Shown here: one piece after another, positions 11,229-36,595 of the stretch | Layout of the letters: every line of letters begins with the position of its first letter | Position numbering within the stretch: position 1 is the first letter of the stretch | Made by a program: the position numbers and the translations under genes | NCBI GenBank assembly: GCA_035526025.1 | Contig: DATLDE010000005.1 | Location: forward strand, 125,690-189,689 | DNA length: 64,000 nt | DNA from: Candidatus Limnocylindrales bacterium | GTDB taxonomy: Bacteria; Patescibacteriota; Microgenomatia; Levybacterales; UBA12049 | Reading direction: 5' to 3' | The notes under the pieces: model-generated | Seen by the model: only the letters and a program-made list of their open reading frames with translations | Told to the model about the DNA's origin: nothing | The model's database searches: none

Positions 11229-13307
11229 ATGCCTAGACTGCCAGTACCCGGTTCTGATGACGGCACCTGGGGCGATGTACTTAATGACTTCCTCTCGCAA
11301 GAGCATAATGCAGATGGTACACAAAAGGCACTTGCTCAATCAAAAGTTACCAACCTTGTCAGTGACTTGGCAGGCAAGCAAGCGACTATTGCTCCTGGCA
11401 CTTATGCGGTGGCGGCGTCGGCCCTCGGCGGGGTCAGCGTGGAGGCGCATGGCGTCACAGCAGTTACCTCACCCGCCTTCAACACCACCGCCATCAACGC
11501 CGCCATCACTGCTGCCATCGCCGCCGGCACGAAACTTGTCACGTTCGCCCGCTCCTACCACTTCGACGGCACTCTGCTTATCGGCGCCAGTGGCATCCGG
11601 TTCCTGGGTGCCAGCCCAGACACAGCAGTGGCGCTCGGCTACACGGGCACCGGCGTGGCCATCCAGATCGGCACTGACAACGGCAATGCACACGACGCGA
11701 ATGAGTACAACGGGCCATACGGCTTCACCATGGAGAATCTCACCCTATTCACCGTCAGCCCGGCCACGGCGCTGGACAACGGGATGGGCAACTACAAAGA
11801 CGGGACCTACGGGATCAGAGACTGGCGTGGGGGGCACGTAACGCTCAAGCACGTTCGCATCACCGGATTCGACTTCCCGTTCTGGGGGATCCAGAGCGAT
11901 ATCAACTTTTGGTCGGATGTGACCTTCCAGTTCAACCACTCTGGGGTTTACCTCGGCCCTCGCTCTGACCAGCTCACCGCAGACGCCGTCCTGTTTCTCC
12001 AGAACGACCGGGCGCTGGACATCGATTCGGCTTGGCAGGCCAAACTCAGCGGCTGCGTCTTCGTCGGCAACGGCACGGCGGCGACCAACCCTGTTCGCAT
12101 CCGCTCACAGTTCAGCCGCGGCGCTTCCGATGTCACGTTCAACGACCCTTGGTTCGAGCATATAACAATCGGCCCGACCAACCTGGAGGCGTTCATTGAA
12201 GTAGGAGTCGGGGACAGCACCCGCACCAAGGGTATCTCGGTCAGGAATCCCTTGGTGCTTACCGGCACCACCGCCGAGGCTGTCCACGCCAAGCACCTCA
12301 TCAAGATCGACCAGGCTGATCACATTGAAGTGGACATCGCCACCGGCACCTTCCTGACCAGCCTCGACAACATCGTCAAGGTAGTCACCAACACCGGCAC
12401 CAGCCCGCAGGTGTCCTGCCGAATGCCCCATGACCTCACCCTCGCCGCCCCGGCGAAATACCTCAAGACGGGCAGTGTCACCCCGGCGTTCGTGCTGGTC
12501 GATTGGGGCAGTCAAGGCTGGGGACTGTCGGACGGCACCGGCCGGGAGTCCATGCGGATGAAGCCGGGGACCGCCCCCATCCTTGATATCGTGGACCCAC
12601 TGACCGGCTTCAACACCCACCGGATGACGTGGACGACCCAGGACGCCGGGCAGCTCTTCATCGACCTCAACCAAACGACCTCACAGGTTCACATCCGAGA
12701 CGGCATTGGTAGCGGGAATGACCTCTTTCGTGTCCAGCCCTCGACCGGGGCCTACATCCCGGGCGGCGTGGACCCGAACGCTCTCACGACGGGTGAGTCG
12801 ACAATCCGGCGTCGGGATATCGATACCAACGGCATCTCCCAGGGCAGCACGACCCTCCGTGTTGCCTATTTCACCGCAGGGAAAACCGAGACGATCACTC
12901 AGGTTCGGTTTATTTCGGGCGGCACGGCGGCAGGGGCGACCCCGACCATTTGCCGCATCGGCATCTGGACCGCCGACGCGGCCGGGGCACTCCTGTCCCT
13001 GGTGGCGTCCACGACCAATGACACGACCCTGTGGGCAGCCGCAGCGACCGTCTACACCAAAGCACTCACGGCGTCCTTCACCAAAGTGGTCGGCCAGCGC
13101 TACGCCGTGGGTACTCTCGTCGTCTCCGCAGCCGCCACCCCGACCACCGTGGGGACGAACGGTGTCGGCGGGCTGCCCGCTGCTGAGGCCGGTCTGTCGC
13201 CCCGAATGAGTGGGACGGTTGCAGGGCAATCCAACCTTCCCGCCAGCGTGGTCGCTGGCAGCATCTCCGACAACGCAAGCGCCGTCTACGTCGTGCTCTT
13301 GCCGTGA
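11229..13307 (+). CDS. Second large beta-helix (pectate-lyase/tailspike-like) protein with the same low-GC N-terminal module and a different high-GC body
   Basis: 692 aa; N-term 'MPRLPVPGSDDGTWGDVLNDFLSQEHNADGTQKALAQSKVTNLVSDLAGKQATI' matches copy A; then 'AINAAITAAIAAGTKLVTFARSYHFDGTLLIGASGIRFLG' (pectate-lyase-like beta-helix start); body unrelated in detail to copy A; high GC persists about 40 nt past the stop. Confidence 0.7.
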   Translation: MPRLPVPGSDDGTWGDVLNDFLSQEHNADGTQKALAQSKVTNLVSDLAGKQATIAPGTYAVAASALGGVSVEAHGVTAVTSPAFNTTAINAAITAAIAAGTKLVTFARSYHFDGTLLIGASGIRFLGASPDTAVALGYTGTGVAIQIGTDNGNAHDANEYNGPYGFTMENLTLFTVSPATALDNGMGNYKDGTYGIRDWRGGHVTLKHVRITGFDFPFWGIQSDINFWSDVTFQFNHSGVYLGPRSDQLTADAVLFLQNDRALDIDSAWQAKLSGCVFVGNGTAATNPVRIRSQFSRGASDVTFNDPWFEHITIGPTNLEAFIEVGVGDSTRTKGISVRNPLVLTGTTAEAVHAKHLIKIDQADHIEVDIATGTFLTSLDNIVKVVTNTGTSPQVSCRMPHDLTLAAPAKYLKTGSVTPAFVLVDWGSQGWGLSDGTGRESMRMKPGTAPILDIVDPLTGFNTHRMTWTTQDAGQLFIDLNQTTSQVHIRDGIGSGNDLFRVQPSTGAYIPGGVDPNALTTGESTIRRRDIDTNGISQGSTTLRVAYFTAGKTETITQVRFISGGTAAGATPTICRIGIWTADAAGALLSLVASTTNDTTLWAAAATVYTKALTASFTKVVGQRYAVGTLVVSAAATPTTVGTNGVGGLPAAEAGLSPRMSGTVAGQSNLPASVVAGSISDNASAVYVVLLP

Positions 13308-13596: not shown

Positions 13597-16320
13597 ATGC
13601 CAACAAAATACATATCATTTCTTGCAGATCTTCCGGTATATTTAATTTTCCTCTCATGCATAACATTTACTTTGCTCATCGCTTATCTTATAACGCGACA
13701 CATATTGCTAAAAAGGAAACTCAATACCCCACATGTTGTTCTTTCAATTAAACCAATCAAGCAAACACTCCAGAGTTCCTATGCTACAGAGCAGTTATTT
13801 ACCCAACTCCATTCACTCATTAAAGGAAAAACATTCTGGCAAAGATTTATGCATGACAAAACATCAATAAGCGTTGAACTAGTTGCAACCAAAGAAGAGG
13901 GAATCCGCTACCTCATTCGCACAAATAAATCTGATGTTTCAGTTATCCGAAAAGCTATCCTGTCATATTTACCAAGTGTTGAGATAGAGGAGGTAGAAGA
14001 TTACCTGCCGCAATCAATCTCAGCTGTGAACAATTTCCTTAAAACAAATAAAGAAATAAGAGTTGTGATTTTTCGCCTATCAAATCACTTCGCAATTCCA
14101 TTAACAGATCAGAAACAACTTGATGAGCATGATCCGATTGCCTATCTCACAGGAAATATGACAAAACTCGCGCGTGAGGAGCTCGTTTCTTTGCAATTAA
14201 TTATTTCTCCGATGGATAAAGCAAGTAACAGAACTAAAACAAATGAAATAAATAGCTTGCTGTCTCATTTATTTCACAGTAAGGATATTTCCAATGTTAT
14301 TAAACATAACAGATTGCTTTCAATCCTTGTTTTCCCAATCAATGCGATTAGTAAATTAATTTACTTAACTCTTGGATTATTGATTGAAATTGTTGGTTAT
14401 ATAGCTGATATTGCAATGAGTAATAGTAACAACCAACAAAGTCCTCGTGACAATTCACAGGCTAAACTTAAAAAAATCTTTACCCCAACAGTCACTCAGC
14501 AAGTGTTATTCGGTCAAGTACATAACAAGCTACAACAGCCAATGTTTGAAACAAGTATGAGGCTTCTTGTAGCTGGCAATAGCTCAGATGCTGTTAGTGA
14601 GCGTATCAGAGGATTTAGAGCAAGTCTCGCAACATTTGATAATACACAATATCAGGCAATTATTCCAAGGCGATCAATCTCAATTCTACCTAAAAAGATC
14701 AAACAATATATTTTGTTTTTCTCACTATACCAAATTGGCAATAGACTGTTGTCTTTCTCTCACAATATTTTCCTCTCAATAAATGAGCTATCAAGTATCT
14801 ATCATTTGCCTTACACCCAAACAACCAAAACTGAGGATATGGTTAAAAGTAAAAGCAAAGAGCTGCCTGCTCCCCATTCATTTAAAAAAGCAGCAACACA
14901 ATTTGATGTTATAGTTGGTACTAATACATATGGTGGTGAACAGACAAAAGTTGGTTTGCCAGTAAGCAACCGCAAAGAGCATACATACATTGTCGGTAAA
15001 ACAGGAACCGGTAAAACAACGATTATTGAGGGAATGGCTCTACAAGACATAACAAATGGCAAAGGAATAGCTGTCATTGATCCCCATGGAGATTTGATTG
15101 AGCATTTACTAACTCTAATTCCTAAAAACAGACTTAAAGATGTGGTACTTGTTAATCCAGCAGATAAAGATTATCCATTGGGACTGAATATCCTCTCCCC
15201 CGGAACGCATTTTTCTGATGTCGATGAGGAAAACGGATTCATAACAAGAAGTCTTATGGCTGTGTTCATGAAAATTACACCTGATAAACATTGGGGGCAG
15301 AGAATGGAGCATATACTCAGAAACGCAACGCTTACTGCCTTAAAGGCACCTACACCAACACCTGAAACACCATATATTTCCTTGCTTTCTATTCAGAAAC
15401 TTCTAACTGACAGTAATTACCGTAGACGAATTACTCAAACCCTAACTGATCCGGTATTAAAACAGTTCTGGGAAAAAGAATATAGCTCATATGGAAAGTT
15501 TCAGCAGGCTGATGCCGCATCTCCTTTGACAAATAAGCTGGGAGGATTTATGACTGATAAGATGTCAAGAAATATCCTGCTTCAGGAAAAAAGTACAATT
15601 AATGTTTCAGAAATAATGGACCAGGAAAAGATTCTTCTTGTGAATCTATCAAAGGGCAAACTGGGAGAGGAGAGAAGTGCATTCTTTGGCACCTTAATGC
15701 TTTCCCTTATCCAACTGGCTGTATATGCAAGGGCTGAAATACCAGAAAAAGAAAGGCGCGATTTCTTTGTTTACATCGATGAATTCCAGAACTTTGCAAG
15801 CACGCACTTTACCGATCTTTTTTCAGAAGCACGAAAGTATCATGTATATTTCATGCCATCTCACCAAAACATTGCCCAAATTGAAGATCCCAAATTATCA
15901 AAAGTTGTATTAAGTAATAGCGGGAATTTAATAGCTCTTAAGAATGGACCGGATGATGAAAGGATTCTTTTACCTTTTCTTGAGCCTGAAGTAGAAAAAG
16001 GATCAATTGTTAATCTTTCCCCTCACCACTTCTACATGAAAGTAACCAATGAATACTCAGAAGATGCATTCTCGGGTGAAACCATACCGATAACAGAGCA
16101 AGGAAGCAGTAAAACAGCAATGGCAATTGTAGAAAATTCAAGAAGTAATTACGCTACTCCAAAAGCCGTAGCTGAGAAACAATTGGAAAAGTTGTTTTTG
16201 GAAATTAAGAAAGAAGTGAAACCCAAAAAAACGGATGGAGATATACAGCAAACGAAACAAAAACCAGCTGCAAAACAAGCAAAAATTACGAAGAAAAAGA
16301 TCAAAAAACAAGAAATATAA
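13597..16320 (+). CDS. Type IV coupling protein (VirD4/TraG/TraD family)
   Basis: 907 aa; N-terminal TM helices; Walker A 'VGKTGTGKTT'; Walker B-like 'FFVYIDEFQNF'; K-rich C-terminal tail. Confidence 0.8.
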   Translation: MPTKYISFLADLPVYLIFLSCITFTLLIAYLITRHILLKRKLNTPHVVLSIKPIKQTLQSSYATEQLFTQLHSLIKGKTFWQRFMHDKTSISVELVATKEEGIRYLIRTNKSDVSVIRKAILSYLPSVEIEEVEDYLPQSISAVNNFLKTNKEIRVVIFRLSNHFAIPLTDQKQLDEHDPIAYLTGNMTKLAREELVSLQLIISPMDKASNRTKTNEINSLLSHLFHSKDISNVIKHNRLLSILVFPINAISKLIYLTLGLLIEIVGYIADIAMSNSNNQQSPRDNSQAKLKKIFTPTVTQQVLFGQVHNKLQQPMFETSMRLLVAGNSSDAVSERIRGFRASLATFDNTQYQAIIPRRSISILPKKIKQYILFFSLYQIGNRLLSFSHNIFLSINELSSIYHLPYTQTTKTEDMVKSKSKELPAPHSFKKAATQFDVIVGTNTYGGEQTKVGLPVSNRKEHTYIVGKTGTGKTTIIEGMALQDITNGKGIAVIDPHGDLIEHLLTLIPKNRLKDVVLVNPADKDYPLGLNILSPGTHFSDVDEENGFITRSLMAVFMKITPDKHWGQRMEHILRNATLTALKAPTPTPETPYISLLSIQKLLTDSNYRRRITQTLTDPVLKQFWEKEYSSYGKFQQADAASPLTNKLGGFMTDKMSRNILLQEKSTINVSEIMDQEKILLVNLSKGKLGEERSAFFGTLMLSLIQLAVYARAEIPEKERRDFFVYIDEFQNFASTHFTDLFSEARKYHVYFMPSHQNIAQIEDPKLSKVVLSNSGNLIALKNGPDDERILLPFLEPEVEKGSIVNLSPHHFYMKVTNEYSEDAFSGETIPITEQGSSKTAMAIVENSRSNYATPKAVAEKQLEKLFLEIKKEVKPKKTDGDIQQTKQKPAAKQAKITKKKIKKQEI

Positions 16321-17917: not shown

Positions 17918-20749
17918 TCAAATTTGTCCAAAACCGTATTTGCTTTCTCTTTTTTTAAAGGCTTCTTCTCCACCTTCAAGAATATCTTTAATTTTTATAT
18001 TAATAATCGGATTTTCTATGGAACCACTTATGTATCCTTTATTATCATCTTGATCTAATTGAGAAACAATTACTTGTTCAGCGTCAGCATTTACAACAAG
18101 ATTTGCATTATGTGTTGATAATATAATCTGTCTCACTTTTTTGATTCTTTTAATAAGGGGAACAAGCTGATTCATGATAAAGTGATTATCTAAGTTATCC
18201 TCAGGTTGATCAACGATAAATATTTGCTTAACACTAGCTGTTGCTAGATAGATTTTTAGCAATAATGTCCCTCTTTGTCCTACCGACAGTTTTTCTGTAG
18301 GGATTTCTTTTAATCGTGCAATTGCCTTAACGTGAATAAATTCATGCCATTTTGTAAATATGAAGTCAATAAATCTATTTATTCCACCTTCATTAAAATT
18401 CTCTTCTTTAAGGAAACTATTCAAATTATTATTAATCCACAGAGCCAATGAATCGAGTGTTATGTCTTTTATGATACCTTTGTCTTTTCCAGCTATGATC
18501 TCTTTAATATCTTGAGCTGATCTTACTCTTCTCCTATCAACGCAGCTGTTTAGAATGTAGTTACAAAATATTTCTTGCTTAAAATCAATTGCTCCCTCAA
18601 TACTAATATCACTTATAATATTCTTAAATAATTCCTTCTCATCTGTTGAGGAACTGTCCCGAGAGCTAGTAAACTCTATAAACTTCTCATCTATTATATC
18701 CTTGCTCAGTTTAACTTCTTTTATAATCTCAGAGTATAAATCGTTTCTCTCTTCTATCTTTTTGATAAGAATTTTTCTTTTTTCTTCATATGTTACAAGA
18801 TCCCTTGATGCATTATTAATTTCTTTTTGAATCGCCTCTATAGATTGCACCAGAGCAGTTATATCCTCTTTTATACCCAATGTAGAAAGCTTTATCTTTT
18901 TTTCTTCAATGGATTTATTAAGTTGTGTAATCTCTTCCCATACCTTTTTTTGTAAAATTTTAATAGATTTTTCTTGAGTATCAAGTACTATTTCTGGAAT
19001 TAATTCCAGATTTTCCTTGTACAAATCTTTCTGTGCTCTATTTAAGTCTGCTATTTCTTTATTGAGAGTAATAGATTTAACTCTTACAAGCAGATCCTCT
19101 ATATCGCTTGAGAAATCCCTAAGGCGCATCTTTCTGTCAATTTCTTTACTTATTTCTTCTAACAACTTCTTCGTTTCCTCTGATGAGAGTGTTTTCTTCT
19201 GAATTGATTTTCTATCAATATAGTTCCTTAACCATTGTTCAAAAGAAATTTGTTTTTTAAAATCAGGATATTTTTGATGTATATCAATAATTTCTTCTCT
19301 TATTATGTTGACGTCTGCTATTAAATTCCTTGCTACTTCGATTAATTGAGGCTTCTCAATATCTGAAAAATTTAAACTGATTAGCTCGCATACTTTTAAA
19401 GTAAGCTCTTTATCGTCTGTAGCTATCAAACTGAGTTGTTCTTGTCCAATGTACAAAAATGGTAAACTTAAGCTTTCAGAATCATCTAAAGTTTTCCCAA
19501 ACTCTTCTTGATTATTATCTTTATCAATCAATTTTGCCTTCAATGAAAATCCTGGAGAAGGATTTTTTAATTCAACGTTATCTCTATAAAATTCAATTAA
19601 CTTAGGCTTACCATTTTGGTCAGCTTTAGCATGTTCTTCATTTAAAAATGCAACTAAGTCTAAAAAAGCACTCTTTCCGCTTCCCCGGCCTCCAATGATT
19701 GTTACTAGCTCCCTGTTAAGGTAGAATTCTGCATTTGGGACGATAAAATTAACACTACCCTCTAAACTTATTTCATCAATATAAACTTTTTTTCTATCTT
19801 CAAAAGGGGATAGTTTCTGTATCTTAACTCTTTCTCCTGGTTCGTAAATGATTTGCTTTAAACCATCAAAGGTGGTGTCTGCTTTGATCCAACAAAATCT
19901 CATATCACAAGTGTCTGAACTTAAACTACAAGTGTGCCCTCTTTCTCCTCTCCTTGCGCAGGGTAACCCGATTTGCTCCAAGCTATGTGCATCTGAACCG
20001 TGGATGCAGGATTTTAGATTTCCATGTTTTCTGATAATTTCATCTTTATTATCAACGCCATTTCCTAAAAAATACGTAAAATCGTTTGGATTTCCAGAAA
20101 AAATACAGTGAGAAAACCTATAAATTTCTTGTCTTGTAGCGGATAAGCTAGAATGCTGAATCCCTGAGTTGCCATCCCTACTACTATTGGATACTACAAT
20201 TACAGAGTTATCTCTTAGTTCTTTATCTTTGGAAAAAATTTGCTGTAAGTTTGTAAGGTTTGTTTTAAATTGATTGACGCCCGCTTCATATGAAGCTTGC
20301 TCTGACAATGTTTCATCATTTGAATACTTCCTTCCTAGATTAATTAAATTGTCCTTAATACATTTATATGTTTCTCCTTGATATGTAAACTCAAGGCTGG
20401 AAAAAAATTTACTTTCTAAGGTATCGACGATTGAGGGATTAAAAATAATATGTAAATTTATTGGTGTTGACGTATCCGTTACTGGAACAATCCTTAATTC
20501 TACGTTTGGAAGAATCAAATCAATATTGGTTAAGTTACTATTATCTCTAATATATTTATATCCATCTACAGAAAAATAATCAGTTATCCCTACAACTGCA
20601 GTATCAGTTAATGTAGATAATTTTTCTAAGTACTTTTCCCATTTCTCTTCTATGGAAGACCCTTCAAATTGATTGTTGAGCGCAGAAACAGGAGAATGGA
20701 TATGCAAATCCCATTTTCTCCATTCAGATCCGCGTATGTATTTATCCAT
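17918..20749 (-). CDS. PHP-domain phosphoesterase fused to SMC/Rad50-like ABC ATPase with coiled-coil insert
   Basis: 943 aa; N-term 'WDLHIHSPVS...GITDYF...HGSDAHS' gives PHP motifs; 'IIGGRGSGKS' Walker A; a roughly 250-aa K/E-rich coiled coil; 'LSVGQRG' ABC signature; 'IFIVDQPEDNLD' Walker B/D-loop; 'LSTHNANL' H-loop. Confidence 0.7.
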   Translation of the reverse strand: MDKYIRGSEWRKWDLHIHSPVSALNNQFEGSSIEEKWEKYLEKLSTLTDTAVVGITDYFSVDGYKYIRDNSNLTNIDLILPNVELRIVPVTDTSTPINLHIIFNPSIVDTLESKFFSSLEFTYQGETYKCIKDNLINLGRKYSNDETLSEQASYEAGVNQFKTNLTNLQQIFSKDKELRDNSVIVVSNSSRDGNSGIQHSSLSATRQEIYRFSHCIFSGNPNDFTYFLGNGVDNKDEIIRKHGNLKSCIHGSDAHSLEQIGLPCARRGERGHTCSLSSDTCDMRFCWIKADTTFDGLKQIIYEPGERVKIQKLSPFEDRKKVYIDEISLEGSVNFIVPNAEFYLNRELVTIIGGRGSGKSAFLDLVAFLNEEHAKADQNGKPKLIEFYRDNVELKNPSPGFSLKAKLIDKDNNQEEFGKTLDDSESLSLPFLYIGQEQLSLIATDDKELTLKVCELISLNFSDIEKPQLIEVARNLIADVNIIREEIIDIHQKYPDFKKQISFEQWLRNYIDRKSIQKKTLSSEETKKLLEEISKEIDRKMRLRDFSSDIEDLLVRVKSITLNKEIADLNRAQKDLYKENLELIPEIVLDTQEKSIKILQKKVWEEITQLNKSIEEKKIKLSTLGIKEDITALVQSIEAIQKEINNASRDLVTYEEKRKILIKKIEERNDLYSEIIKEVKLSKDIIDEKFIEFTSSRDSSSTDEKELFKNIISDISIEGAIDFKQEIFCNYILNSCVDRRRVRSAQDIKEIIAGKDKGIIKDITLDSLALWINNNLNSFLKEENFNEGGINRFIDFIFTKWHEFIHVKAIARLKEIPTEKLSVGQRGTLLLKIYLATASVKQIFIVDQPEDNLDNHFIMNQLVPLIKRIKKVRQIILSTHNANLVVNADAEQVIVSQLDQDDNKGYISGSIENPIINIKIKDILEGGEEAFKKRESKYGFGQI

Positions 20750-26703: not shown

Positions 26704-27432
26704 TCAATCACTATGCTCACACCGCTGTGGTGGCTCTAATTTAGGAAGCGTTGTCTTGTTATGAACGAGGGCTGCGTTGTTTTTCACATATACGAAATAA
26801 TTATTACTTCCTGAAACCTGAGGATTATATACTGTAATTGGTGTTTCGCTTTGAACTTCCTCGATGCTCTCAATAACTAGTGGGACAATCGCCTCTGCAG
26901 CTACTAATTCATCTCCTGCAGCAAGTTCTTTTGCTTTTTTCCAAATTATGTTTCCAGACTTTCGCACCCCCATAGGATGTTCAGATGTAACTTTTAGTGT
27001 CCGGTTAATAAGATAATACGAATTTACTTTATAACTTCTGCACATCTCTATTTTTCCAGAAACAATTGTATTTGTTTTGATATCAAGACCCATCACCTCA
27101 TCACCTACATCTAGAGCAGAAATTCTCACTTTCCCCTTTGAAGTCCAGACTTGTGTATCACCTGTAAAGCTACTACTCATCCCCATGCCTAAAGCAGAAA
27201 ACACATACTGCAAGCCTACGTATGTTATTGCAGTAATAATGAAAATTACTATTCCTATTTTCATTTTCTTTACCCACATGTTATGAGGAGTATGCCTGAG
27301 TGAAGACAAAATTATACCCAAAATTCCGATAATAATCAGAATTACTGAAACGGTTGTTGAAATAAAAAATAATGAACTAATGATGTTTAGGAAAATACGA
27401 ATTGGTAAATACATATTACTTAGTATAGACAT
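26704..27432 (-). CDS. Membrane-anchored Hint (intein-like/BIL) domain protein
   Basis: 242 aa; 2-3 N-terminal TM helices, then 'SFTGDTQVWTSKG..ISALDVGDEV' (intein block A-like with Ser1), 'TSEHP' (block B T..H) and C-terminal 'NNAALVHN' (block G His-Asn). Confidence 0.55.
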   Translation of the reverse strand: MSILSNMYLPIRIFLNIISSLFFISTTVSVILIIIGILGIILSSLRHTPHNMWVKKMKIGIVIFIITAITYVGLQYVFSALGMGMSSSFTGDTQVWTSKGKVRISALDVGDEVMGLDIKTNTIVSGKIEMCRSYKVNSYYLINRTLKVTSEHPMGVRKSGNIIWKKAKELAAGDELVAAEAIVPLVIESIEEVQSETPITVYNPQVSGSNNYFVYVKNNAALVHNKTTLPKLEPPQRCEHSD

Positions 27433-29219: not shown

Positions 29220-29522
29220 TTATTCCGATTGGAATGTTTTTATGAAGATTGCGAGTTTTTTACCGTATGGAGAAAGTTTATGTTCCCGAAATTTTCCTCG
29301 ATAATTTTTATCAATTAGTCCTGCGACATGTAGTCTTCGCGTATGTTCACCTATTGTTTTCTCATTGGCTTTAATCTTCTCAACTATACCTTCAAGTGTT
29401 ATTCCTGGTTGGTCATGAATAAGAATAAGTATCTGAATACGATAATGATTGGAGATACCCTTAAAATGCCTTTCCATCTGCTTTGCAGTCTTTACAGAAG
29501 CCATAAAATTATTATTCCACAA
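29220..29522 (-). CDS. ArsR/SmtB-family wHTH transcriptional regulator
   Basis: 100 aa; 'HYRIQILILIHDQPGITLEGIVEKIKANEKTIGEHTRRLHVAGLI' HTH pattern; non-ATG start in ORF table, ATG (MASV) a few codons in. Confidence 0.55.
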   Translation of the reverse strand: MWNNNFMASVKTAKQMERHFKGISNHYRIQILILIHDQPGITLEGIVEKIKANEKTIGEHTRRLHVAGLIDKNYRGKFREHKLSPYGKKLAIFIKTFQSE

Positions 29523-29893: not shown

Positions 29894-31378
29894 TTAGGAC
29901 TGCTTGAGCTTGACTAAGTGCTTATAGATCTCAACCATAGCCAGAGTATCAAGGCCACAATACTTTATCAGATCATCAAGGATTTGTTCTTTTTCTGCAT
30001 TTCGCTCTCCATACAGAATTGCCTCCATCCACAATCTTTGAGCTGAAGCTCCTTCCTGTATGCCAAGCGTTTTGTAGGACAATTCGGGAGCAAGAACAGG
30101 TAGAACTGCTTTTATTGAGGCACTGCCCCCAAATCCCTTATCAACATACCAACTACTTGAAAAGGGAATCATCAGATCAACGATCCGATTATTCACCTCC
30201 TCATAAAATTCCTTGTACTCAGTAAGGATTGTTCCAAGTAGCGTGTTACAACTTTTTTCAAACCCCGCGCTCCAGGCCAGAATCGATCCTGTGGTACCAA
30301 TTTGTGATTTAAGATTTTTACTAATCTCCTCAGCAGGATTGGAATTATCACTATGTAGATATTCAAAATGCCTGATCTCAGAATCAGGCGTCTCCAGAAC
30401 ATCCAGGGAATATTGAAAAGGAAGCTGTTGATACGCGCGGAGGTCATCAAAATATGGGACAATGCCACCCAGGGTCTCATAATCAAGAAAATAAAGAGGG
30501 TAAATAAGACTGGATAGAAAATCTCTGATTTTTTCTTTCTCTATCAGGACTCTATTTTGTTTGACTGATTCTACCTGTTGCTTTTGTTTGCCAGACAGTG
30601 GAAAGTCAGATGGTATTTCGTTAAGTTTCTTCACTTTCAATTCGTCAAATTTGCTAAGCAATTTGGTGTTAAGTACACATAAGTCATAAATGCTTTCAGG
30701 CTCAACACTGACCAACCCACGATAAATTCCAAGCCATTCTTTGAGAGATCCATACGCAGCAAGTGAAGGGGAAATATCAGGCATGACTTCTGAGTTGGCA
30801 ACTTTTAGAGCTGCCTTTATATTATCCTCGGTAAATTTTCTTTTGGCTTTTACGTTTTCTGTTATGTCTACAATAGTTGTAAATTCACCAGGGACTATAT
30901 CACCACGCTTAATATATTCATTATTAACATGAATTACTGAAATATTGCGAACTGTGTTTCCGCATAGCTCAAGTACAATCATTTGAAAAGCCAGATCTAG
31001 CTCGTGCTCTAATTTCACCTTTGTACTTGATTTTATTTCGTATAAATCAACTGTTTTTTCATCAACGATCTGGATTACATCACACACAAAAGTTAACTGA
31101 CTGTGTTCAAATCTTCCCTGGAATATCGTTTTTGCTCCCTCTTTTATAGCTCTTTGCGTACGCTCAGGTAGGCTCAGATATTCATAATAATCATCAAATC
31201 CTAGCCTTACTCCCTCAGGAAATAATTGCTCAGCATATGTTTCAAACAAATGACCCGCATCAAATACAGCTTGAGTGTTGTCATCAATTATAGGAAGCTT
31301 TGCTTTATCGTGTTTCTTAAGCCACAGCCATGCCGGGTGCTTGAGAAACATCATGTATTCTGATTTAGACAAAAGCAT
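29894..31378 (-). CDS. DUF2779-like PD-(D/E)XK (RecB-family) nuclease domain protein
   Basis: 494 aa; N-term 'LSKSEYMMFLKHPAWLWLK'; 'VDLYEIKSS' (D-x-E-x-K); C-terminal 'YFLDYETLGGIVPYFDDLRAYQQLPFQYSL' matches the DUF2779 hallmark. Confidence 0.6.
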   Translation of the reverse strand: MLLSKSEYMMFLKHPAWLWLKKHDKAKLPIIDDNTQAVFDAGHLFETYAEQLFPEGVRLGFDDYYEYLSLPERTQRAIKEGAKTIFQGRFEHSQLTFVCDVIQIVDEKTVDLYEIKSSTKVKLEHELDLAFQMIVLELCGNTVRNISVIHVNNEYIKRGDIVPGEFTTIVDITENVKAKRKFTEDNIKAALKVANSEVMPDISPSLAAYGSLKEWLGIYRGLVSVEPESIYDLCVLNTKLLSKFDELKVKKLNEIPSDFPLSGKQKQQVESVKQNRVLIEKEKIRDFLSSLIYPLYFLDYETLGGIVPYFDDLRAYQQLPFQYSLDVLETPDSEIRHFEYLHSDNSNPAEEISKNLKSQIGTTGSILAWSAGFEKSCNTLLGTILTEYKEFYEEVNNRIVDLMIPFSSSWYVDKGFGGSASIKAVLPVLAPELSYKTLGIQEGASAQRLWMEAILYGERNAEKEQILDDLIKYCGLDTLAMVEIYKHLVKLKQS

Positions 31379-31490: not shown

Positions 31491-33005
31491 CTATTCATAC
31501 TGCAGATGAGATGCAAAAAGCTCTACTTCCTTCCGATCTATAACAGCATCAAGATTTTTAATACTTTCGTAATCAATATATTTTGCATCGTCAAGCAATT
31601 TCTTTAAGTCCGCAGGCAATTCCCATTTTGAGCTAAAAAGCTCTAAATTTTCACCGGTGGCATTTCTACATAGTTTTTCTTCAAAAAGAAAATAAATACT
31701 GTGTTTTATAGCAATTCTTTGTAACCATATTTCCAAAAGCCCAGAATTTGGTAATAAATTAATTTTTCGGAGTAACTTGTCTAGAACTTCCTTCTTACTC
31801 TCATGTGCCCTTTTATCAATAGCCTTACTAATTAATACAGCAACTATCGGAAAAGATCTTGGATTTTCATATGCAATATTAATAAGAATACTTATGATTT
31901 CAATATAATTATTTCGAAGTAAGGTAACTCTAACAGTATCATTTAGCCTCATTAATCTAATATTTACAGCACCACAATTAGGGTGGCTTGTCCCTATTGA
32001 ATATATAGTTAAAAGTTCATTCCGGAGTGTTTTTTTTGTGATCGTATTTGATAATGGCAACTTAAGCATGGCCAATTTATCTGGTTTAATTGAATCAGTA
32101 ATAATACTATCACTTTTTTTAGTTTTTGCGGTGTTTAGTGCCATACCAAGCTTAGCAAGTACCTCACTTAAGGACTTCATGATTAATTCTCCGTCTTTAG
32201 GATTTCGGACAAAAATTCTATAATCATCACGATAACGAAGAATTCTATATGAATCTTTACTAAGTAACTTTATTTTTTTAGAAAGTTCATGATCAGCGTA
32301 AGATAAAACTATCTCTGCAATAAAATCCATTAACACACTTCCTTGGGGTATTCCATTTGTTTGGCCATTGGACATTGCTTGAAGATGATGGTCAATTTTA
32401 TTGCCTAAAAGTTGATTATAATTTCGCTTCTCTTTTGAAATAGACTTTTCATGTAACGCCCATGCTATAGAGTGAGTATAAACAGAACCATAACAATTAA
32501 CAATGTCAGTTTGAAATAAATATTCAAAATCTAATGCTAAACGTATAGATTCTTTTTCAATCAAATCAAACCATTCATTCACCTGAGTGGCTTGTTGTTT
32601 CTTATTGGTATCGCCAATAACAGGCAAGCTTATACAGCTTATCGAATTATTGAATGAAAGACTTTTAAATCTGCTACAAATTATTTCCCAAGAGTCTCTA
32701 GCAGTGATAAGATTAACAAGCGAAACATATAGTACTGGATTAATTAATTCGTATTTTCTCCATGCATAATTACCATCTTTATTTCCGTAGATAATATGAT
32801 TTATATTCTCAGCGCTTTTAGCAGTCATAAGATTTTTTTCTGGGATGGGCCCTCCTCGCAATTTTTTAGAAAGTACCAACAAAGTCTTTTCAAATTCAAA
32901 GTATGGAGGCAGGTCCATACTAAAATATTTTTCTTGATTAAGGAAGAATTTATTAGCTTTTCTGCAATCTAATTTCAGAATGTTACTCCTCATAGTATCT
33001 ACCAC
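31491..33005 (-). CDS. Stand-alone reverse transcriptase (defence-associated/Abi-like RT candidate)
   Basis: 504 aa; motif A 'TDIVNCYGSV', motif B 'NGIPQGSVLMDFIAEIVL', motif C 'RYRDDYRIF' (YxDD); roughly 200-aa alpha-helical C-terminal extension; no maturase/En domain. Confidence 0.7.
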   Translation of the reverse strand: MVDTMRSNILKLDCRKANKFFLNQEKYFSMDLPPYFEFEKTLLVLSKKLRGGPIPEKNLMTAKSAENINHIIYGNKDGNYAWRKYELINPVLYVSLVNLITARDSWEIICSRFKSLSFNNSISCISLPVIGDTNKKQQATQVNEWFDLIEKESIRLALDFEYLFQTDIVNCYGSVYTHSIAWALHEKSISKEKRNYNQLLGNKIDHHLQAMSNGQTNGIPQGSVLMDFIAEIVLSYADHELSKKIKLLSKDSYRILRYRDDYRIFVRNPKDGELIMKSLSEVLAKLGMALNTAKTKKSDSIITDSIKPDKLAMLKLPLSNTITKKTLRNELLTIYSIGTSHPNCGAVNIRLMRLNDTVRVTLLRNNYIEIISILINIAYENPRSFPIVAVLISKAIDKRAHESKKEVLDKLLRKINLLPNSGLLEIWLQRIAIKHSIYFLFEEKLCRNATGENLELFSSKWELPADLKKLLDDAKYIDYESIKNLDAVIDRKEVELFASHLQYE

Positions 33006-33105: not shown

Positions 33106-34209
33106 CTATATATTACCTTTCCGTCGATTGTCTTCCCTGCATAACATCTGGCAATTCACAGTTAATGTTTTTCCACCCTCTACCCATGGCGTAATGTGAT
33201 CTGCTTCCATTTCTTCTATATCAAATCTATTTTTACAAAAACGGCAAACACCGTTCTGTCTCTCATATGCTTCCCTCCTCATTCTGTCAGTAAATGCACG
33301 TATACTTAGATAATTCTCCTTCCTCGTGAGAACGTAAGGGTAAATCCCAGATTTCTTTGTTACATCTTCATCTTGCATTAATACTTTTATTTCTTCTTCA
33401 AGTTTTACAGTATTTAGCTTTTGCTCATTAAATTGATTGTAGAGATCACCCCAATTTACATTTGCCATTTCTCTTCTGTAATTCGGGAACGCTTTTCGCA
33501 CCCAAGAGATAACGTCTTGAAAGTAATTCCATAACTCATCTGCATTTTTATCATGTTGATGTTTGGCCATGTAATCCGCAATTTCACCATTGTTAATCCA
33601 AGAAAGTGAAGTTTCTAAGTATTCTTGCCTTATCGGTGAACCCGCCAAAAGGGAACCACCATCATTGGCCAATAGATATGCAGCACAATTTGTTTTGCTG
33701 AATTTGAGTTTTGCATCAGACAACCAAGGGCCAGTATAAACAGCATTTTTAAGTTCCTGATCCGTAAGTTTTTCACCTGCAATATTAATAATTCTGAACC
33801 AATCCAAACGCTCTTTGTCTGTGCCTTCACAAAAATAAATCATTAATTGATAATCCAAAATCTGATTCTGTTCGTCAGGAGTTAAGTTGTGGAACATTGC
33901 TAATCTGCCATTAAAATCTACGGAAAAGTCGCCATTTACAAATTGTGCAAGACTAATTGTTCTTTGTTGGCCATCAAGTACTTCATATCCACCATCTTCT
34001 CTCACAACCCAGTACATCACATTAAGTGGGAACCCATTCCTGACAGTATCAATGACTGCATCTCGTTGTGTATCTTTGTAGATAAATTCGCGCTGGTATT
34101 TGGGACGAATATCAAGTTTGCCACAATATCCTACAACACCTTCTTCAGCATTGTCTGTATATTCATCAACTACTTCTCGCACTTTTATTTTTTGTAACTC
34201 AATCTTCAT
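33106..34209 (-). CDS. DUF262 (ParB-like, DGQQR) + C-terminal HNH nuclease protein, GmrSD-like
   Basis: 367 aa; 'VLDGQQRTISLAQF' DUF262 motif; C-term 'CRFCKNRFDIEEMEADHITPWVEGG...NCQMLCREDNRRKGN' HNH. Confidence 0.7.
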   Translation of the reverse strand: MKIELQKIKVREVVDEYTDNAEEGVVGYCGKLDIRPKYQREFIYKDTQRDAVIDTVRNGFPLNVMYWVVREDGGYEVLDGQQRTISLAQFVNGDFSVDFNGRLAMFHNLTPDEQNQILDYQLMIYFCEGTDKERLDWFRIINIAGEKLTDQELKNAVYTGPWLSDAKLKFSKTNCAAYLLANDGGSLLAGSPIRQEYLETSLSWINNGEIADYMAKHQHDKNADELWNYFQDVISWVRKAFPNYRREMANVNWGDLYNQFNEQKLNTVKLEEEIKVLMQDEDVTKKSGIYPYVLTRKENYLSIRAFTDRMRREAYERQNGVCRFCKNRFDIEEMEADHITPWVEGGKTLTVNCQMLCREDNRRKGNI

Positions 34210-34213
34210 ATTA

Positions 34214-35275
34214 CTAGACCTTTTTTCGTATCAAAATACGTCCATATTTAAGTTTGCCACTGATGTAAGGACCATCTTTGCCTGACGCAGAAGTAATTCC
34301 TGCTAAACCTTTGATGTTTCCTGCAATGAGACCAACTATTTCAAATTGTTCAGGGTTGTATTTATCTACAAATGTAATAGGGACACCCATTACACCATCG
34401 TGGTCTACAGGAATATCAGAAACTTTATTGACATTTATTGCGTTGTAATTGTCATACTTGAGAAACTCTTCTGGAGTATATTTCTTATATAATGTTAACT
34501 CTTGATGACGTTTTGTAGTTTCTAAATTTGTGAACCATAAAATTCTCCCCATACTGAAATACTTTACTCCATTCACAATCTTCTTTCTCGATTCTGTTGG
34601 GATATCATAGTCCATCGGAACCTGAAACCACTTTGTGCCACCATTGTCATTACCAAGCCACAATTTATTGTCTTTAATTAGCTTGAAAATCTCTTTGTAG
34701 GTAATGGCATTTTGATCACCAAGAATCAAAAAATTCTTCTTAAATTCAGTAAGCTGGGCTATATATTCACGAAACAAGGAGAAAGGAGGATTGGTGACGA
34801 CAATATCAGCCTCATTGAGTAGTTCAATGCACTCTTTACTTCTAAAATCTCCATTTTCTTTTAAAGGTGTTGACACGTTAGCATCACGTTTCAAAAGCCA
34901 CTCTACGTCTGTTAAATCTATGGCACCATCAGTATTTTTATCTGGCACGTCATTAATTTCAATCTTAAAAGGCTTTTTTCCTTCAGGTTTTAAACCTTGT
35001 ATTTCAAGAAGTGGGAGCTGTCCACCTGCAATAGAAGATTGGTCAAAACTCGTAGTTATAAGTTTCTTTAGTCCTAATGCATTAAAATTTGCAGCAAAAT
35101 ATTTGAAGAAATTGCTCTCAAAAGGATCATCACAATTACAATATACTACCTTGCCACGAAATTGATCCTTGTAATGCTTCAATTCTTTTTCAATGTCAGT
35201 TAACTGCGTATAAAACTCATCCTTCTTGGCTTTACCTGCCTTACCTAAGTTTGTATTTAATGATTTTGAATTCAT
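34214..35275 (-). CDS. N6-adenine DNA methyltransferase-like (gamma-class, NPPF motif)
   Basis: 353 aa; 'IVVTNPPFSLF' motif IV; upstream 'CDDPFESN' degenerate motif I; stop 4 nt from DUF262-HNH start. Confidence 0.5.
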   Translation of the reverse strand: MNSKSLNTNLGKAGKAKKDEFYTQLTDIEKELKHYKDQFRGKVVYCNCDDPFESNFFKYFAANFNALGLKKLITTSFDQSSIAGGQLPLLEIQGLKPEGKKPFKIEINDVPDKNTDGAIDLTDVEWLLKRDANVSTPLKENGDFRSKECIELLNEADIVVTNPPFSLFREYIAQLTEFKKNFLILGDQNAITYKEIFKLIKDNKLWLGNDNGGTKWFQVPMDYDIPTESRKKIVNGVKYFSMGRILWFTNLETTKRHQELTLYKKYTPEEFLKYDNYNAINVNKVSDIPVDHDGVMGVPITFVDKYNPEQFEIVGLIAGNIKGLAGITSASGKDGPYISGKLKYGRILIRKKV

Positions 35276-35388
35276 AACTGTTTAAGCGTTAAGTCATAAT
35301 TTTAATCTTTGTTTAGCAAGCTTTTGTAATTACCAGTTTTACGTATTATACGCCCCGGGGAAGGTTTTGGGAAGCGGGGAGAGGAGTA

Positions 35389-35811
35389 TTAAGTTCTATT
35401 TGGTATCCGGATTTGAAAATACCCTTTTTCTTTCTTATCCAAATATACATTATTCTCCCCAAATTTAACACTTAATTTTCTCATCACCATCTCCTCACTT
35501 TTATCTCGTTTACCTACAAATTTCCCAAAGAAATATATAAAATATTGATCCCTTTCAATATATTTGTACTTAAAAAGCTTATGACTGAATGCTGACTTAT
35601 AACCGATCATATCCAGGACTTCACTAACATCGCGATTTCTATAATGAATAAAGTGATCTTTCCCTATCTCAGAAAATGGAAAATATTTTGAAATTTTAGT
35701 ATAAAACTTGAAAAGGTGAGGAAGTATAAATTCAGCTAATATGATCAAGACAAAACCTTTAAAGCTAATCTCAGATTCAGGCTTTTCAACTGCTTTCTTC
35801 ACTGATTTCAC
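35389..35811 (-). CDS. Hypothetical protein
   Basis: 140 aa, hydrophobic N-terminal half, no motif. Confidence 0.3.
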   Translation of the reverse strand: MKSVKKAVEKPESEISFKGFVLIILAEFILPHLFKFYTKISKYFPFSEIGKDHFIHYRNRDVSEVLDMIGYKSAFSHKLFKYKYIERDQYFIYFFGKFVGKRDKSEEMVMRKLSVKFGENNVYLDKKEKGYFQIRIPNRT

Positions 35812-35947
35812 AAACTTATCAATATTATAGTCCTAAAACTGGGATTATGGAAAGCGGGAACGTGAGGTAGTGAGTATAAAGCAGTAAGGATAAAGTATGA
35901 TAAAACTTCCTGTATTATTTTTTATAAACTGCGTTTTCTCTACCCGC

Positions 35948-36595
35948 CTATGTCTTACTCAGAAATGCATCGCGACCTGATCCGATACGATATGGTGCAT
36001 ATCTTTCAGGATTTTTGTACGCATAATCCTGATGCTCTTCTTCTGCTGGCCAAAAATCTGATGCGGGAATAATCTCTGTCACTATTGGCTTTTCAAATAT
36101 TTTTGCTTTAGTGATTGCATCACTAACATCATTAGCAATCCTTTTTTCATCCTCATTTTCATAATATACAGCTGATGTGTATCCCTCTCCTCTATCAAAA
36201 AATGAACCTCCGGGATCTGTCGGATCAATATGACGGAAATAATACTCAGCGAGTTCACCATACGTGATTATCGTGGGATCATAAACAACTTCTACTGCTT
36301 CTCTATGTCCACCCGCTACGTAGTTTTCATACGTTACATTCTCTGTTCTCCCACCTGTGAATCCTGATCTGACATCAACAATTCCCTTTGGAATTTTTTC
36401 AAAATATGACTCCAGACTCCAGAAACATCCTCCGGCAAAGATTGCTACTTTATCTGCTTCGCGCCTTGGTCTTCTTTCAATAGTCTTTTCTGCTGCAATA
36501 GAATCAGATTTCTGTACTGGTGTGTGTTTAAAGAACACATTGAACCCAAGGTACACAATGACAGCTGCTATTAAAAATATTATATATTTCTTCAT
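35948..36595 (-). CDS. msrA: Peptide methionine sulfoxide reductase MsrA (membrane-anchored/secreted)
   Basis: 'GGCFWSLESYFEKIPKGIVDVRSGFTGGRTENVTYENY...GHREAVEVVYDP' MsrA signature with N-terminal TM. Confidence 0.85.
   Translation of the reverse strand: MKKYIIFLIAAVIVYLGFNVFFKHTPVQKSDSIAAEKTIERRPRREADKVAIFAGGCFWSLESYFEKIPKGIVDVRSGFTGGRTENVTYENYVAGGHREAVEVVYDPTIITYGELAEYYFRHIDPTDPGGSFFDRGEGYTSAVYYENEDEKRIANDVSDAITKAKIFEKPIVTEIIPASDFWPAEEEHQDYAYKNPERYAPYRIGSGRDAFLSKT

Follow-up and report, generated by a model that had tools for sequence, protein, structure and literature searches.

A DUF262-HNH nuclease gene abutting an EcoRI-family methyltransferase gene in a Patescibacteriota contig: a probable type II-style restriction-modification operon

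Among described restriction enzymes carrying a DUF262 domain, those of the GmrSD family (GmrSD, Eco94GmrSD, BrxU, and SspE; for the motif definitions, see PMC4619093) combine an N-terminal DUF262 domain of the ParB/sulfiredoxin (Srx) fold, containing a DGQQR motif and an upstream R-x-F motif, with a C-terminal His-Me finger nuclease containing a D-H-I-x-P motif. These type IV enzymes are modification-dependent and usually solitary, have about 570-700 amino acids (aa), and carry a DUF1524 domain. BrxU uses its RLFDS and DGQQR motifs to bind and hydrolyse nucleotide, its Q101A and R102A variants bind the nucleotide without hydrolysing it, and both binding and hydrolysis must come before DNA cleavage by the nuclease domain, which has a DHIYP motif (PMC8565348). 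Fusions of DUF262 to HNH and other nucleases are also frequent in the vicinity of modification genes (PMC3632139). In Bifidobacterium animalis, a "DUF262 domain-containing protein" encoded next to its methyltransferase appears in REBASE as Ban8145ORF124P, a putative type II enzyme with the site RTCAGG (PMC13091528). Here, we analyse a pair of genes encoding a DUF262-HNH nuclease and an EcoRI-family methyltransferase, found in a stretch of 64,000 nucleotides (nt), hereafter the window, of a Patescibacteriota genome (Candidatus Limnocylindrales bacterium, assembly GCA_035526025.1, contig DATLDE010000005.1, positions 125,690 to 189,689). This pair very probably constitutes a type II-style restriction-modification (RM) system.

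Some RM systems associate a cognate methyltransferase with a restriction activity that needs nucleotide hydrolysis, as is proposed below for the window pair. This is the case for CglI and NgoAVII. Those systems use a separate helicase-like ATPase subunit, a PLD nuclease and a 5-methylcytosine methyltransferase, whereas in the window a ParB-like domain is fused to an HNH domain and the mark would be N6-methyladenine (m6A). To our knowledge, none of the restriction enzymes KpnI, Hpy99I, PacI, MnlI, and HpyAV has an N-terminal DUF262 NTPase-like domain. They resemble the window nuclease by their beta-beta-alpha-metal HNH active site, often accompanied by a Cys4 zinc site, and they restrict unmethylated DNA (PMC4081073), as the window nuclease is expected to do. 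The Bifidobacterium case provides another likeness, since there too, as in the PADLOC models REase_II and MTase_II described below, a DUF262 protein is regarded as the restriction partner of an adjacent methyltransferase. Ban8145ORF124P, however, has an asymmetric site and a differently annotated methyltransferase, and probably belongs to another subfamily.

The two genes of the window pair are encoded on the minus strand, the methyltransferase gene being upstream:

34214..35275, minus strand: methyltransferase gene, 353 aa, EcoRI family, predicted N6-adenine DNA methyltransferase (open reading frame (ORF), Pfam PF13651, PADLOC MTase_II PDLC03297, and identity to M.EcoRI)
34781..34792, minus strand: catalytic motif IV of the methyltransferase, NPPF, residues 162-165 (computed position)
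34210..34213, minus strand: 4-nt spacer TAAT between the methyltransferase stop codon (TAG) and the nuclease start codon (ATG), from the sequence
33106..34209, minus strand: predicted restriction nuclease gene, 367 aa, with a DUF262 domain, a helical middle region and an HNH domain (ORF, PADLOC REase_II PDLC03418, and AlphaFold2 model)

The junction reads ...GTC TAG TAAT ATG..., and the gap is exactly 4 nt (34213..34210). Both ORFs and their spacing, reported in an earlier sequence-only reading of this DNA, can be read directly from the letters. An independent public assembly holds the exact nuclease protein with the same neighbours, so that the locus is not an assembly quirk.

The methyltransferase matches the Pfam family EcoRI_methylase (PF13651) over positions 1-345 of 345, with an E-value of 3.5e-139 and a score of 464.4 bits for a gathering cut-off of 26.4, and it matches the PADLOC model MTase_II (PDLC03297) over its full length (E 2.7e-132). 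As a reference, the authentic M.EcoRI was taken as the protein encoded beside the "EcoRI family type II restriction endonuclease" on the Escherichia coli plasmid pU90-3. The two methyltransferases share 47% identity over their full length, with a well conserved C-terminal half and an insertion of about 27 aa in the window protein, and the NPPF motif aligns with that of M.EcoRI within the shared sequence TNPPFSLFREY. The PF13651 and M.EcoRI matches thus indicate that the window protein is, as judged from its sequence, a DNA N6-adenine methyltransferase of the EcoRI family and of the gamma class. This agrees with the assignment previously made from the NPPF motif, and the alternative of an RNA or protein methyltransferase fails in the profile classification. 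The resemblance to the EcoRI system extends to the organisation as a two-gene type II operon on mobile DNA. However, the order is R then M for EcoRI and M then R in the window. Moreover, R.EcoRI is a PD-(D/E)XK enzyme, to which the DUF262-HNH nuclease shows no similarity.

For the nuclease, the best match in any library is the PADLOC model REase_II (PDLC03418), which is aligned over positions 1-371 of 372 (E 1.4e-141). This end-to-end match means that the family has already been catalogued as a type II restriction enzyme. Hence, the novelty implied by the sequence-only reading, which saw an RM-like variant of a GmrSD-like protein, was overstated. No NCBIfam model was found for either protein. 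Within the nuclease, the following elements can be recognised:

33730..34122, minus strand: DUF262 domain (GmrSD_N, ParB/Srx fold), residues ~30-160 (Pfam PF03235, residues 34-158, E 3.1e-16)
within 34084-34098, minus strand: RxFxY motif (R40-Y44) of the DUF262 domain, YQREF being residues 38-42
33961-33975, minus strand: DGQQR motif of the DUF262 domain, residues 79-83
33295..33729, minus strand: all-helical middle region, residues ~161-305 (helices 161-295 in the model; no family match)
33112..33246, minus strand: HNH (His-Me finger) domain, residues 322-366 (Pfam PF01844, E 7.8e-11)

The DUF262(DGQQR)-HNH architecture deduced earlier is therefore recovered by the Pfam profiles, whose scores for both proteins far exceed what chance would give. 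The HNH domain displays a CxxC pair (C322, C325), D337-H338 within DHITPW (337-342), N352, C353/C357 and N361, and it matches the HNH nuclease of Gme in the PDB (4h9d, E 5.4e-06). In Pfam, the only HNH models matched were PF01844 and PF14279, and DUF1524 (PF07510) gave no match in the nuclease. The claim that the C-terminal module is a classical HNH and not DUF1524 thus holds at the level of Pfam. It is less clear-cut at the level of the motif, since DHITP is nearly the DHIYP of the DUF1524 domain of BrxU. Compared with the GmrSD family, the window nuclease is shorter, carries a PF01844 HNH domain with a cysteine cluster, and is linked to a methyltransferase.

Conservation was assessed on an alignment of 69 homologues (46-86% identity). 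In the DUF262 part, Y38-Q39-R40, Y44, E76, D79-G80-Q81-Q82-R83, N142, G145, Q151-E152 and N155 are invariant. In the HNH part, the invariant residues are C322, C325, D337-H338, N352, C357 and N361. The middle region also contains many invariant aromatic or basic residues, such as W162, K167, R194, Q195, W227, W236, W253 and R304. This region is a candidate DNA-recognition or linker module.

In the AlphaFold2 model of the nuclease (mean pLDDT 86.5, pTM 0.60), the N-terminal domain is of the alpha/beta kind, the middle (~161-305) consists entirely of helices, and the HNH domain has the beta-beta-alpha arrangement. When this model was compared with solved structures using Foldseek, BrxU (7p9k) was the best whole-chain match (E 3.5e-4). 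For the N-terminal domain, the ParB/Noc CTPase domains and sulfiredoxin ranked after BrxU, and for the C-terminal domain the matches were the Gme HNH nuclease (4h9d), the HNH domain of Cas9 and McrA. At the sequence level, similarity to BrxU is marginal (E 0.13) and covers the first motif. The window nuclease nevertheless retains R40-x-F-x-Y44, DGQQR and DHITP. Because the motifs of the nucleotide site of BrxU are kept, it can be proposed by analogy that the window protein is a nucleotide-gated HNH nuclease, a proposal to which we give roughly even chances.

The available data suggest the following functioning. The methyltransferase would mark the host's own DNA on adenine N6 at a short sequence. 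The nuclease, whose gene abuts that of the methyltransferase and is probably translationally coupled to it, would cut DNA lacking this mark through its C-terminal HNH active site (D337-H338...N352...N361), which a putative zinc-binding cysteine cluster would help to support. The DUF262 domain may cause cleavage to be gated or stimulated by a nucleotide, unlike what occurs in orthodox type IIP enzymes, and the helical middle region probably contributes to DNA recognition. In this scheme, the data establish the structure of the genes, the families of their products, the conservation of linkage and motifs, and the mobility of the pair, and we infer the blocking of cleavage by methylation, the requirement for NTP and the target sequence.

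The association of the two genes is conserved well beyond the window. A scan of species-representative genomes identified 303 genomes encoding a relative. The best 80 loci, mostly from metagenome-assembled genomes of Patescibacteria (candidate phyla radiation, CPR), were studied, and one Lactiplantibacillus plasmid was added to examine linkage. An EcoRI-family methyltransferase gene is found upstream of the nuclease gene, on the same strand, in 78 of these 81 loci, and for two of the three exceptions the contig ends no more than 500 nt away from the nuclease gene. In the loci with two complete ORFs, the distance from the stop codon to the start codon ranges from -11 to +9 nt in 57 loci out of 68, the commonest value being 1 nt. 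Such abutting genes fit with co-transcription and translational coupling.

The pair also persists on plasmids, at 38-61% nuclease identity. Carriers are Macrococcoides, Sulfitobacter, Aeromonas, Variovorax, Gordonia, Lactobacillaceae (including Lactiplantibacillus), Enterococcus faecium and Thiomicrorhabdus, with values going as low as 38% among the plasmids of Enterococcus, Macrococcoides, Lactiplantibacillus and Thiomicrorhabdus. The Thiomicrorhabdus plasmid seemed to have no methyltransferase gene, but the ORF is there, intact, and is simply absent from the gene table. In the temperate Flavobacterium phage laban6-1, the pair is an accessory cassette. E. coli carries it too, both in a prophage and in integrative elements adjoining CcdAB and TraG. 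The strains 2013C-3033 and TUM1886 are among its natural E. coli carriers.

One of the E. coli loci is particularly informative. In strain 2015C-3121 (L084), an IS1 insertion sequence splits the nuclease gene and leaves the methyltransferase gene intact, whereas other strains have both genes intact at the same element site (L085 and L086). Such a decay is expected if the nuclease is dangerous and the methyltransferase protective. These strains represent a natural experiment that could be exploited using their existing PacBio methylomes. Moreover, in roughly 14 related loci (about one in five), a gene of 65-70 aa encoding an HTH_3 helix-turn-helix (HTH) protein of the Cro/C1 type ends 1-4 nt before the start of the methyltransferase gene, and two loci have an HTH_17 gene at that place. 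These proteins resemble the controller proteins of type II systems. They came to light in a scan of the regions upstream of the related methyltransferase genes, in which the search for a conserved palindrome or recognition site returned only coding-sequence signals. Finally, fused proteins are found in databases. P0262 (688 aa) joins EcoRI_methylase, GmrSD_N and HNH, and the fragment P0387 (515 aa) joins EcoRI_methylase to GmrSD_N, with no HNH match. These may be true RM enzymes in a single chain, or else products of gene calling across a stop codon, for instance a recoded one. Taken together, the linkage, the IS1 case, the HTH genes and the fusions support an RM unit and argue strongly against a solitary modification-dependent enzyme. 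Along with the PADLOC type II models, the likeness to M.EcoRI and the abutting genes, they lend sequence-based support to the core of the sequence-only reading, namely that of an RM-like, modification-blocked enzyme.

The size of the family was evaluated with an exhaustive HMMER search over 1.84 billion cluster representatives (clusters at 50% identity). This search gave 5678 matches at E <= 1e-3 and 489 clusters at E <= 1e-30. The best 150 matches are mostly about 360-410 aa long, with nearly the whole query covered. A word-indexed search returned at least 8000 matches for each of two different queries. Members are frequent in the human gut, where 776 contigs carry a Ruminococcus bromii cluster and 941 contigs an E. 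coli member. The family spans Patescibacteria, Firmicutes, Proteobacteria, Bacteroidota, plasmids and phages, many E. coli strains possess it, and close relatives at 73-86% identity occur across phyla and are abundant in public data. Public sources name them only as "DUF262 domain-containing protein", "HNH endonuclease (family protein)" or "GmrSD restriction endonuclease domain-containing protein". The window pair is a member of an already catalogued and very widespread type II RM family, not a new variant.

Within this family, the two partners have diverged differently. Among 67 CPR-type pairs, the mean pairwise identity is 80% for the nucleases (minimum 72%) and 63% for the methyltransferases (minimum 45%), and the two distance matrices are weakly correlated (r = 0.25). 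In addition, 11 of 68 loci (L004, L005, L007, L011, L017, L020, L021, L063, L070, L073 and L076) have other genes, lying on the same strand, that separate the methyltransferase gene from the nuclease gene. The products of these insertions include DUF2130 proteins, T5orf172/MUG113 proteins (GIY-YIG-like), RhuM, a 927-aa SMC/AAA_23 ATPase and membrane proteins of unknown function. In L007, the inserted gene encodes a second EcoRI-family methyltransferase. Accessory or defence genes thus seem to be inserted preferentially at the M/R junction. The divergence pattern and the insertions together suggest recombination at the junction and exchange of partners, which leaves room for a nuclease acting as a conserved effector with a specificity that is not of the type IIP kind.

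The similarity of the methyltransferase to M.EcoRI raises the question of the recognition sequence. The identity between M.EcoRI and the partner methyltransferases compared is 40-54% (45-54% for nearly all of them), and that of the partners among themselves is 45-98%, so that the range of M.EcoRI overlaps the lower part of the family's own spread. Because of this overlap, GAATTC, of which M.EcoRI methylates the inner adenine, or a site with an AATT core, can be put forward as the target. We regard it as a guess, with odds clearly against it. A published tool transfers specificity at 80% identity, for which the 47% shared with M.EcoRI is too low. In a neighbour-joining tree, M.EcoRI stands at the edge of the partner methyltransferases, near the E. 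coli and Lactiplantibacillus partners, and this tree was judged too weak to transfer specificity by position. Avoidance of short words was also considered. In 1.27 Mb of pooled related loci, the observed/expected (O/E) ratio of GAATTC is 0.76 (z -7.5, the lowest z among the palindromic 6-mers). No 4-6-mer was found to be clearly avoided in these pooled loci. There was no avoidance signal in the window, nor in two phages and a plasmid carrying the pair, the phages not being depleted in GAATTC. Since the depletion of GAATTC is not distinctive, word avoidance was rejected as evidence for the recognition site.

Other explanations of the pair have to be considered. The nuclease could be a modification-dependent type IV enzyme, similar to GmrSD, BrxU or SspE, the methyltransferase being an unrelated or orphan enzyme or marking a different sequence. 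A DUF262 domain with DGQQR is indeed a hallmark of the GmrSD-family enzymes, and both the fold match to BrxU over the whole chain and the resemblance of DHITP to DHIYP go in the same direction. However, 78 of 81 loci have the M-then-R linkage, with abutting genes and with carriers that include different phyla, plasmids and phages, which is unexpected for a solitary enzyme. Moreover, a nuclease that depends on m6A would be lethal to its host when coupled to an m6A methyltransferase, and in E. coli 2015C-3121 it is the nuclease gene that was lost while the methyltransferase was kept. At the sequence level, the profile that the nuclease matches best is one for type II restriction enzymes and not one for GmrSD, DUF1524 is absent according to Pfam, and the similarity to BrxU is marginal. 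A type IV enzyme is thus very improbable. Slightly less probable still is the idea that the pair is mainly a selfish cassette, ensuring addiction through post-segregational killing, or a maintenance or homing module of mobile elements, with no real antiviral role. Its presence on small plasmids, in integrative elements beside CcdAB, in prophages and in a temperate phage would agree with such a role, as would the 73-86% identity across phyla, which implies recent horizontal spread. Nevertheless, addiction is a property of many type II RM systems and not an alternative mechanism, the window pair lies beside a defence reverse transcriptase of the AbiP2 type, and the nuclease has a DUF262 domain and is associated with neither intron nor intein, the usual context of a homing endonuclease.

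It can also be imagined that the nuclease by itself has hardly any sequence specificity, or none. It would then be restrained by adenine methylation occurring densely, at a short and very common site that the methyltransferase defines as self, or would receive its recognition from the methyltransferase within a complex, the nuclease being a conserved and exchangeable effector. The contrast in conservation between the two partners and their weak co-divergence favour this idea, methyltransferases only 45-55% identical serving nucleases that are about 75% identical. The lack of a clearly avoided 4-6-mer, the insertions at the M/R junction, including that of a second methyltransferase, and the M-R fusion proteins may be read in the same way. 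On the other hand, the conserved helical middle region, in which many basic and aromatic positions are invariant, could serve as a specific reader. In addition, the partner methyltransferases all belong to one family and have a conserved C-terminal half, which fits with one shared specificity, and true RM systems, too, often show only a weak avoidance of their site. A nuclease devoid of its own specificity therefore appears unlikely, though less so than the two preceding explanations.

It should, however, be noted that several observations weigh against the type II-style RM operon that we favour. In L047, the nuclease gene has no adjacent methyltransferase gene and is truly solitary within the available 3.3 kb. 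In the window, no controller HTH gene was found upstream of the pair, the only ORF there being one of 140 aa without any family match. The fusion proteins P0262 and P0387 could be artefacts of gene calling. Biochemical or methylome evidence for any member of the family was not found in the literature searched, nor was a paper on the specificity or cofactors of the family, no source gives a member the name of a particular restriction enzyme, and no named, characterised prototype was found in the literature, the source names of the homologues, NCBIfam or sequence searches of the PDB. The sequences behind the PADLOC model may have been REBASE entries with only a putative status. As to GAATTC, its O/E ratio in the pooled loci is similar to that of many other palindromes. 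Finally, the restriction enzyme of type II systems usually evolves faster than the methyltransferase (see PMC4081073). The greater conservation of the nuclease is the reverse of this pattern and hints at partner swapping or at another recognition logic.

With regard to the window itself, an RM annotation is of little consequence, as a standard PADLOC scan would label both genes type II RM. What remains of interest is how the DUF262-HNH restriction enzymes work biochemically. If the retained NTP site is functional, the family would illustrate how one sensor-nuclease chassis can serve both modification-dependent and modification-blocked restriction, and the family could yield new enzymes for DNA work. 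A more speculative proposal, which we hold as possible but doubtful, is that these proteins form an uncharacterised class of restriction enzymes in which the nucleotide-driven DUF262 switch of GmrSD has been rewired to attack unmethylated DNA and is blocked by m6A. Such enzymes might recognise the EcoRI site (GAATTC or a variant with an AATT core) with a fold unrelated to that of EcoRI. The nuclease would be an unusually conserved, exchangeable effector associated with diverged methyltransferases, and the M/R junction would be an insertion site for other defence genes.

Around the pair, one flank is made of housekeeping genes, encoding MsrA (35948-36595), an EamA transporter and a PfkB kinase. 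On the other flank, going away from the pair, lie the following genes:

31491-33005, minus strand: reverse transcriptase (full-length match to PADLOC AbiP2, E 2.3e-174; stand-alone AbiP2 type)
29894-31378, minus strand: DUF2779 protein (weak Cas4/RecB-like N-terminal and RNase H-like C-terminal matches)
29220-29522: small ArsR-like HTH protein

The sequence-only reading had spoken of an RT-nuclease pair, which corresponds to the reverse transcriptase and the DUF2779 protein. Their plasmid homologues are found in different taxa (Enterococcus, Staphylococcus and Pediococcus on the one hand, Arcobacter and Helicobacter on the other) and, because of this, the two are probably independent genes. 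Neither was retained as a part of the RM system, since they are absent from the related loci, except for one DUF2779 match, and have homologues in different hosts. The 140-aa ORF (35389-35811), for which neither a family match nor a homologue in the related loci was found, was also discarded as a component. The suggestion of a defence island remains valid in a reduced form, with two recognised defence systems, the AbiP2 reverse transcriptase and the RM pair, side by side.

Upstream of the methyltransferase gene, a consensus scan identified one promoter-like site:

35345..35373, minus strand: TTCCCA, 17 nt, TATAAT, about 70 nt upstream of the methyltransferase start

Across the region, the count of promoter-like sites is not above the shuffled expectation, so that this site is weak. 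Similar C/T-rich stretches followed by TATAAT are found on the minus strand at 35300-35870, upstream of the 140-aa ORF and of the methyltransferase gene. They read TTCCCGCTTTCCATAATCCC...ACTATAAT and TCCCCGCTTCCCAAAACCTTCC...CGTATAAT, and may correspond to a repeated promoter element.

Farther away in the window, two paralogous ORFs of 763 and 692 aa (6852-9143 and 11229-13307, plus strand) form islands of about 60% GC in a window of about 36% GC. Their N-terminal ~60 aa are nearly identical (MPRLPxPGSDDGTWGDxLNDFL...QSKVTNLVSDLAGKQ) and are followed by Gly/Thr/Ala-rich sequences, with only a sub-threshold match to CBM_4_9. They could represent surface proteins, of the tail-fibre or beta-helix type, with a foreign composition. 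The window also encodes a TrwB/TraG-like coupling ATPase with a HerA/DUF87 domain (13597-16320, plus strand), a 943-aa SMC_N/AAA_21 ATPase (17918-20749, minus strand) and a membrane protein with a pretoxin-HINT domain (26704-27432, minus strand). These three genes hint that the region upstream of the RM pair is conjugative or mobile.

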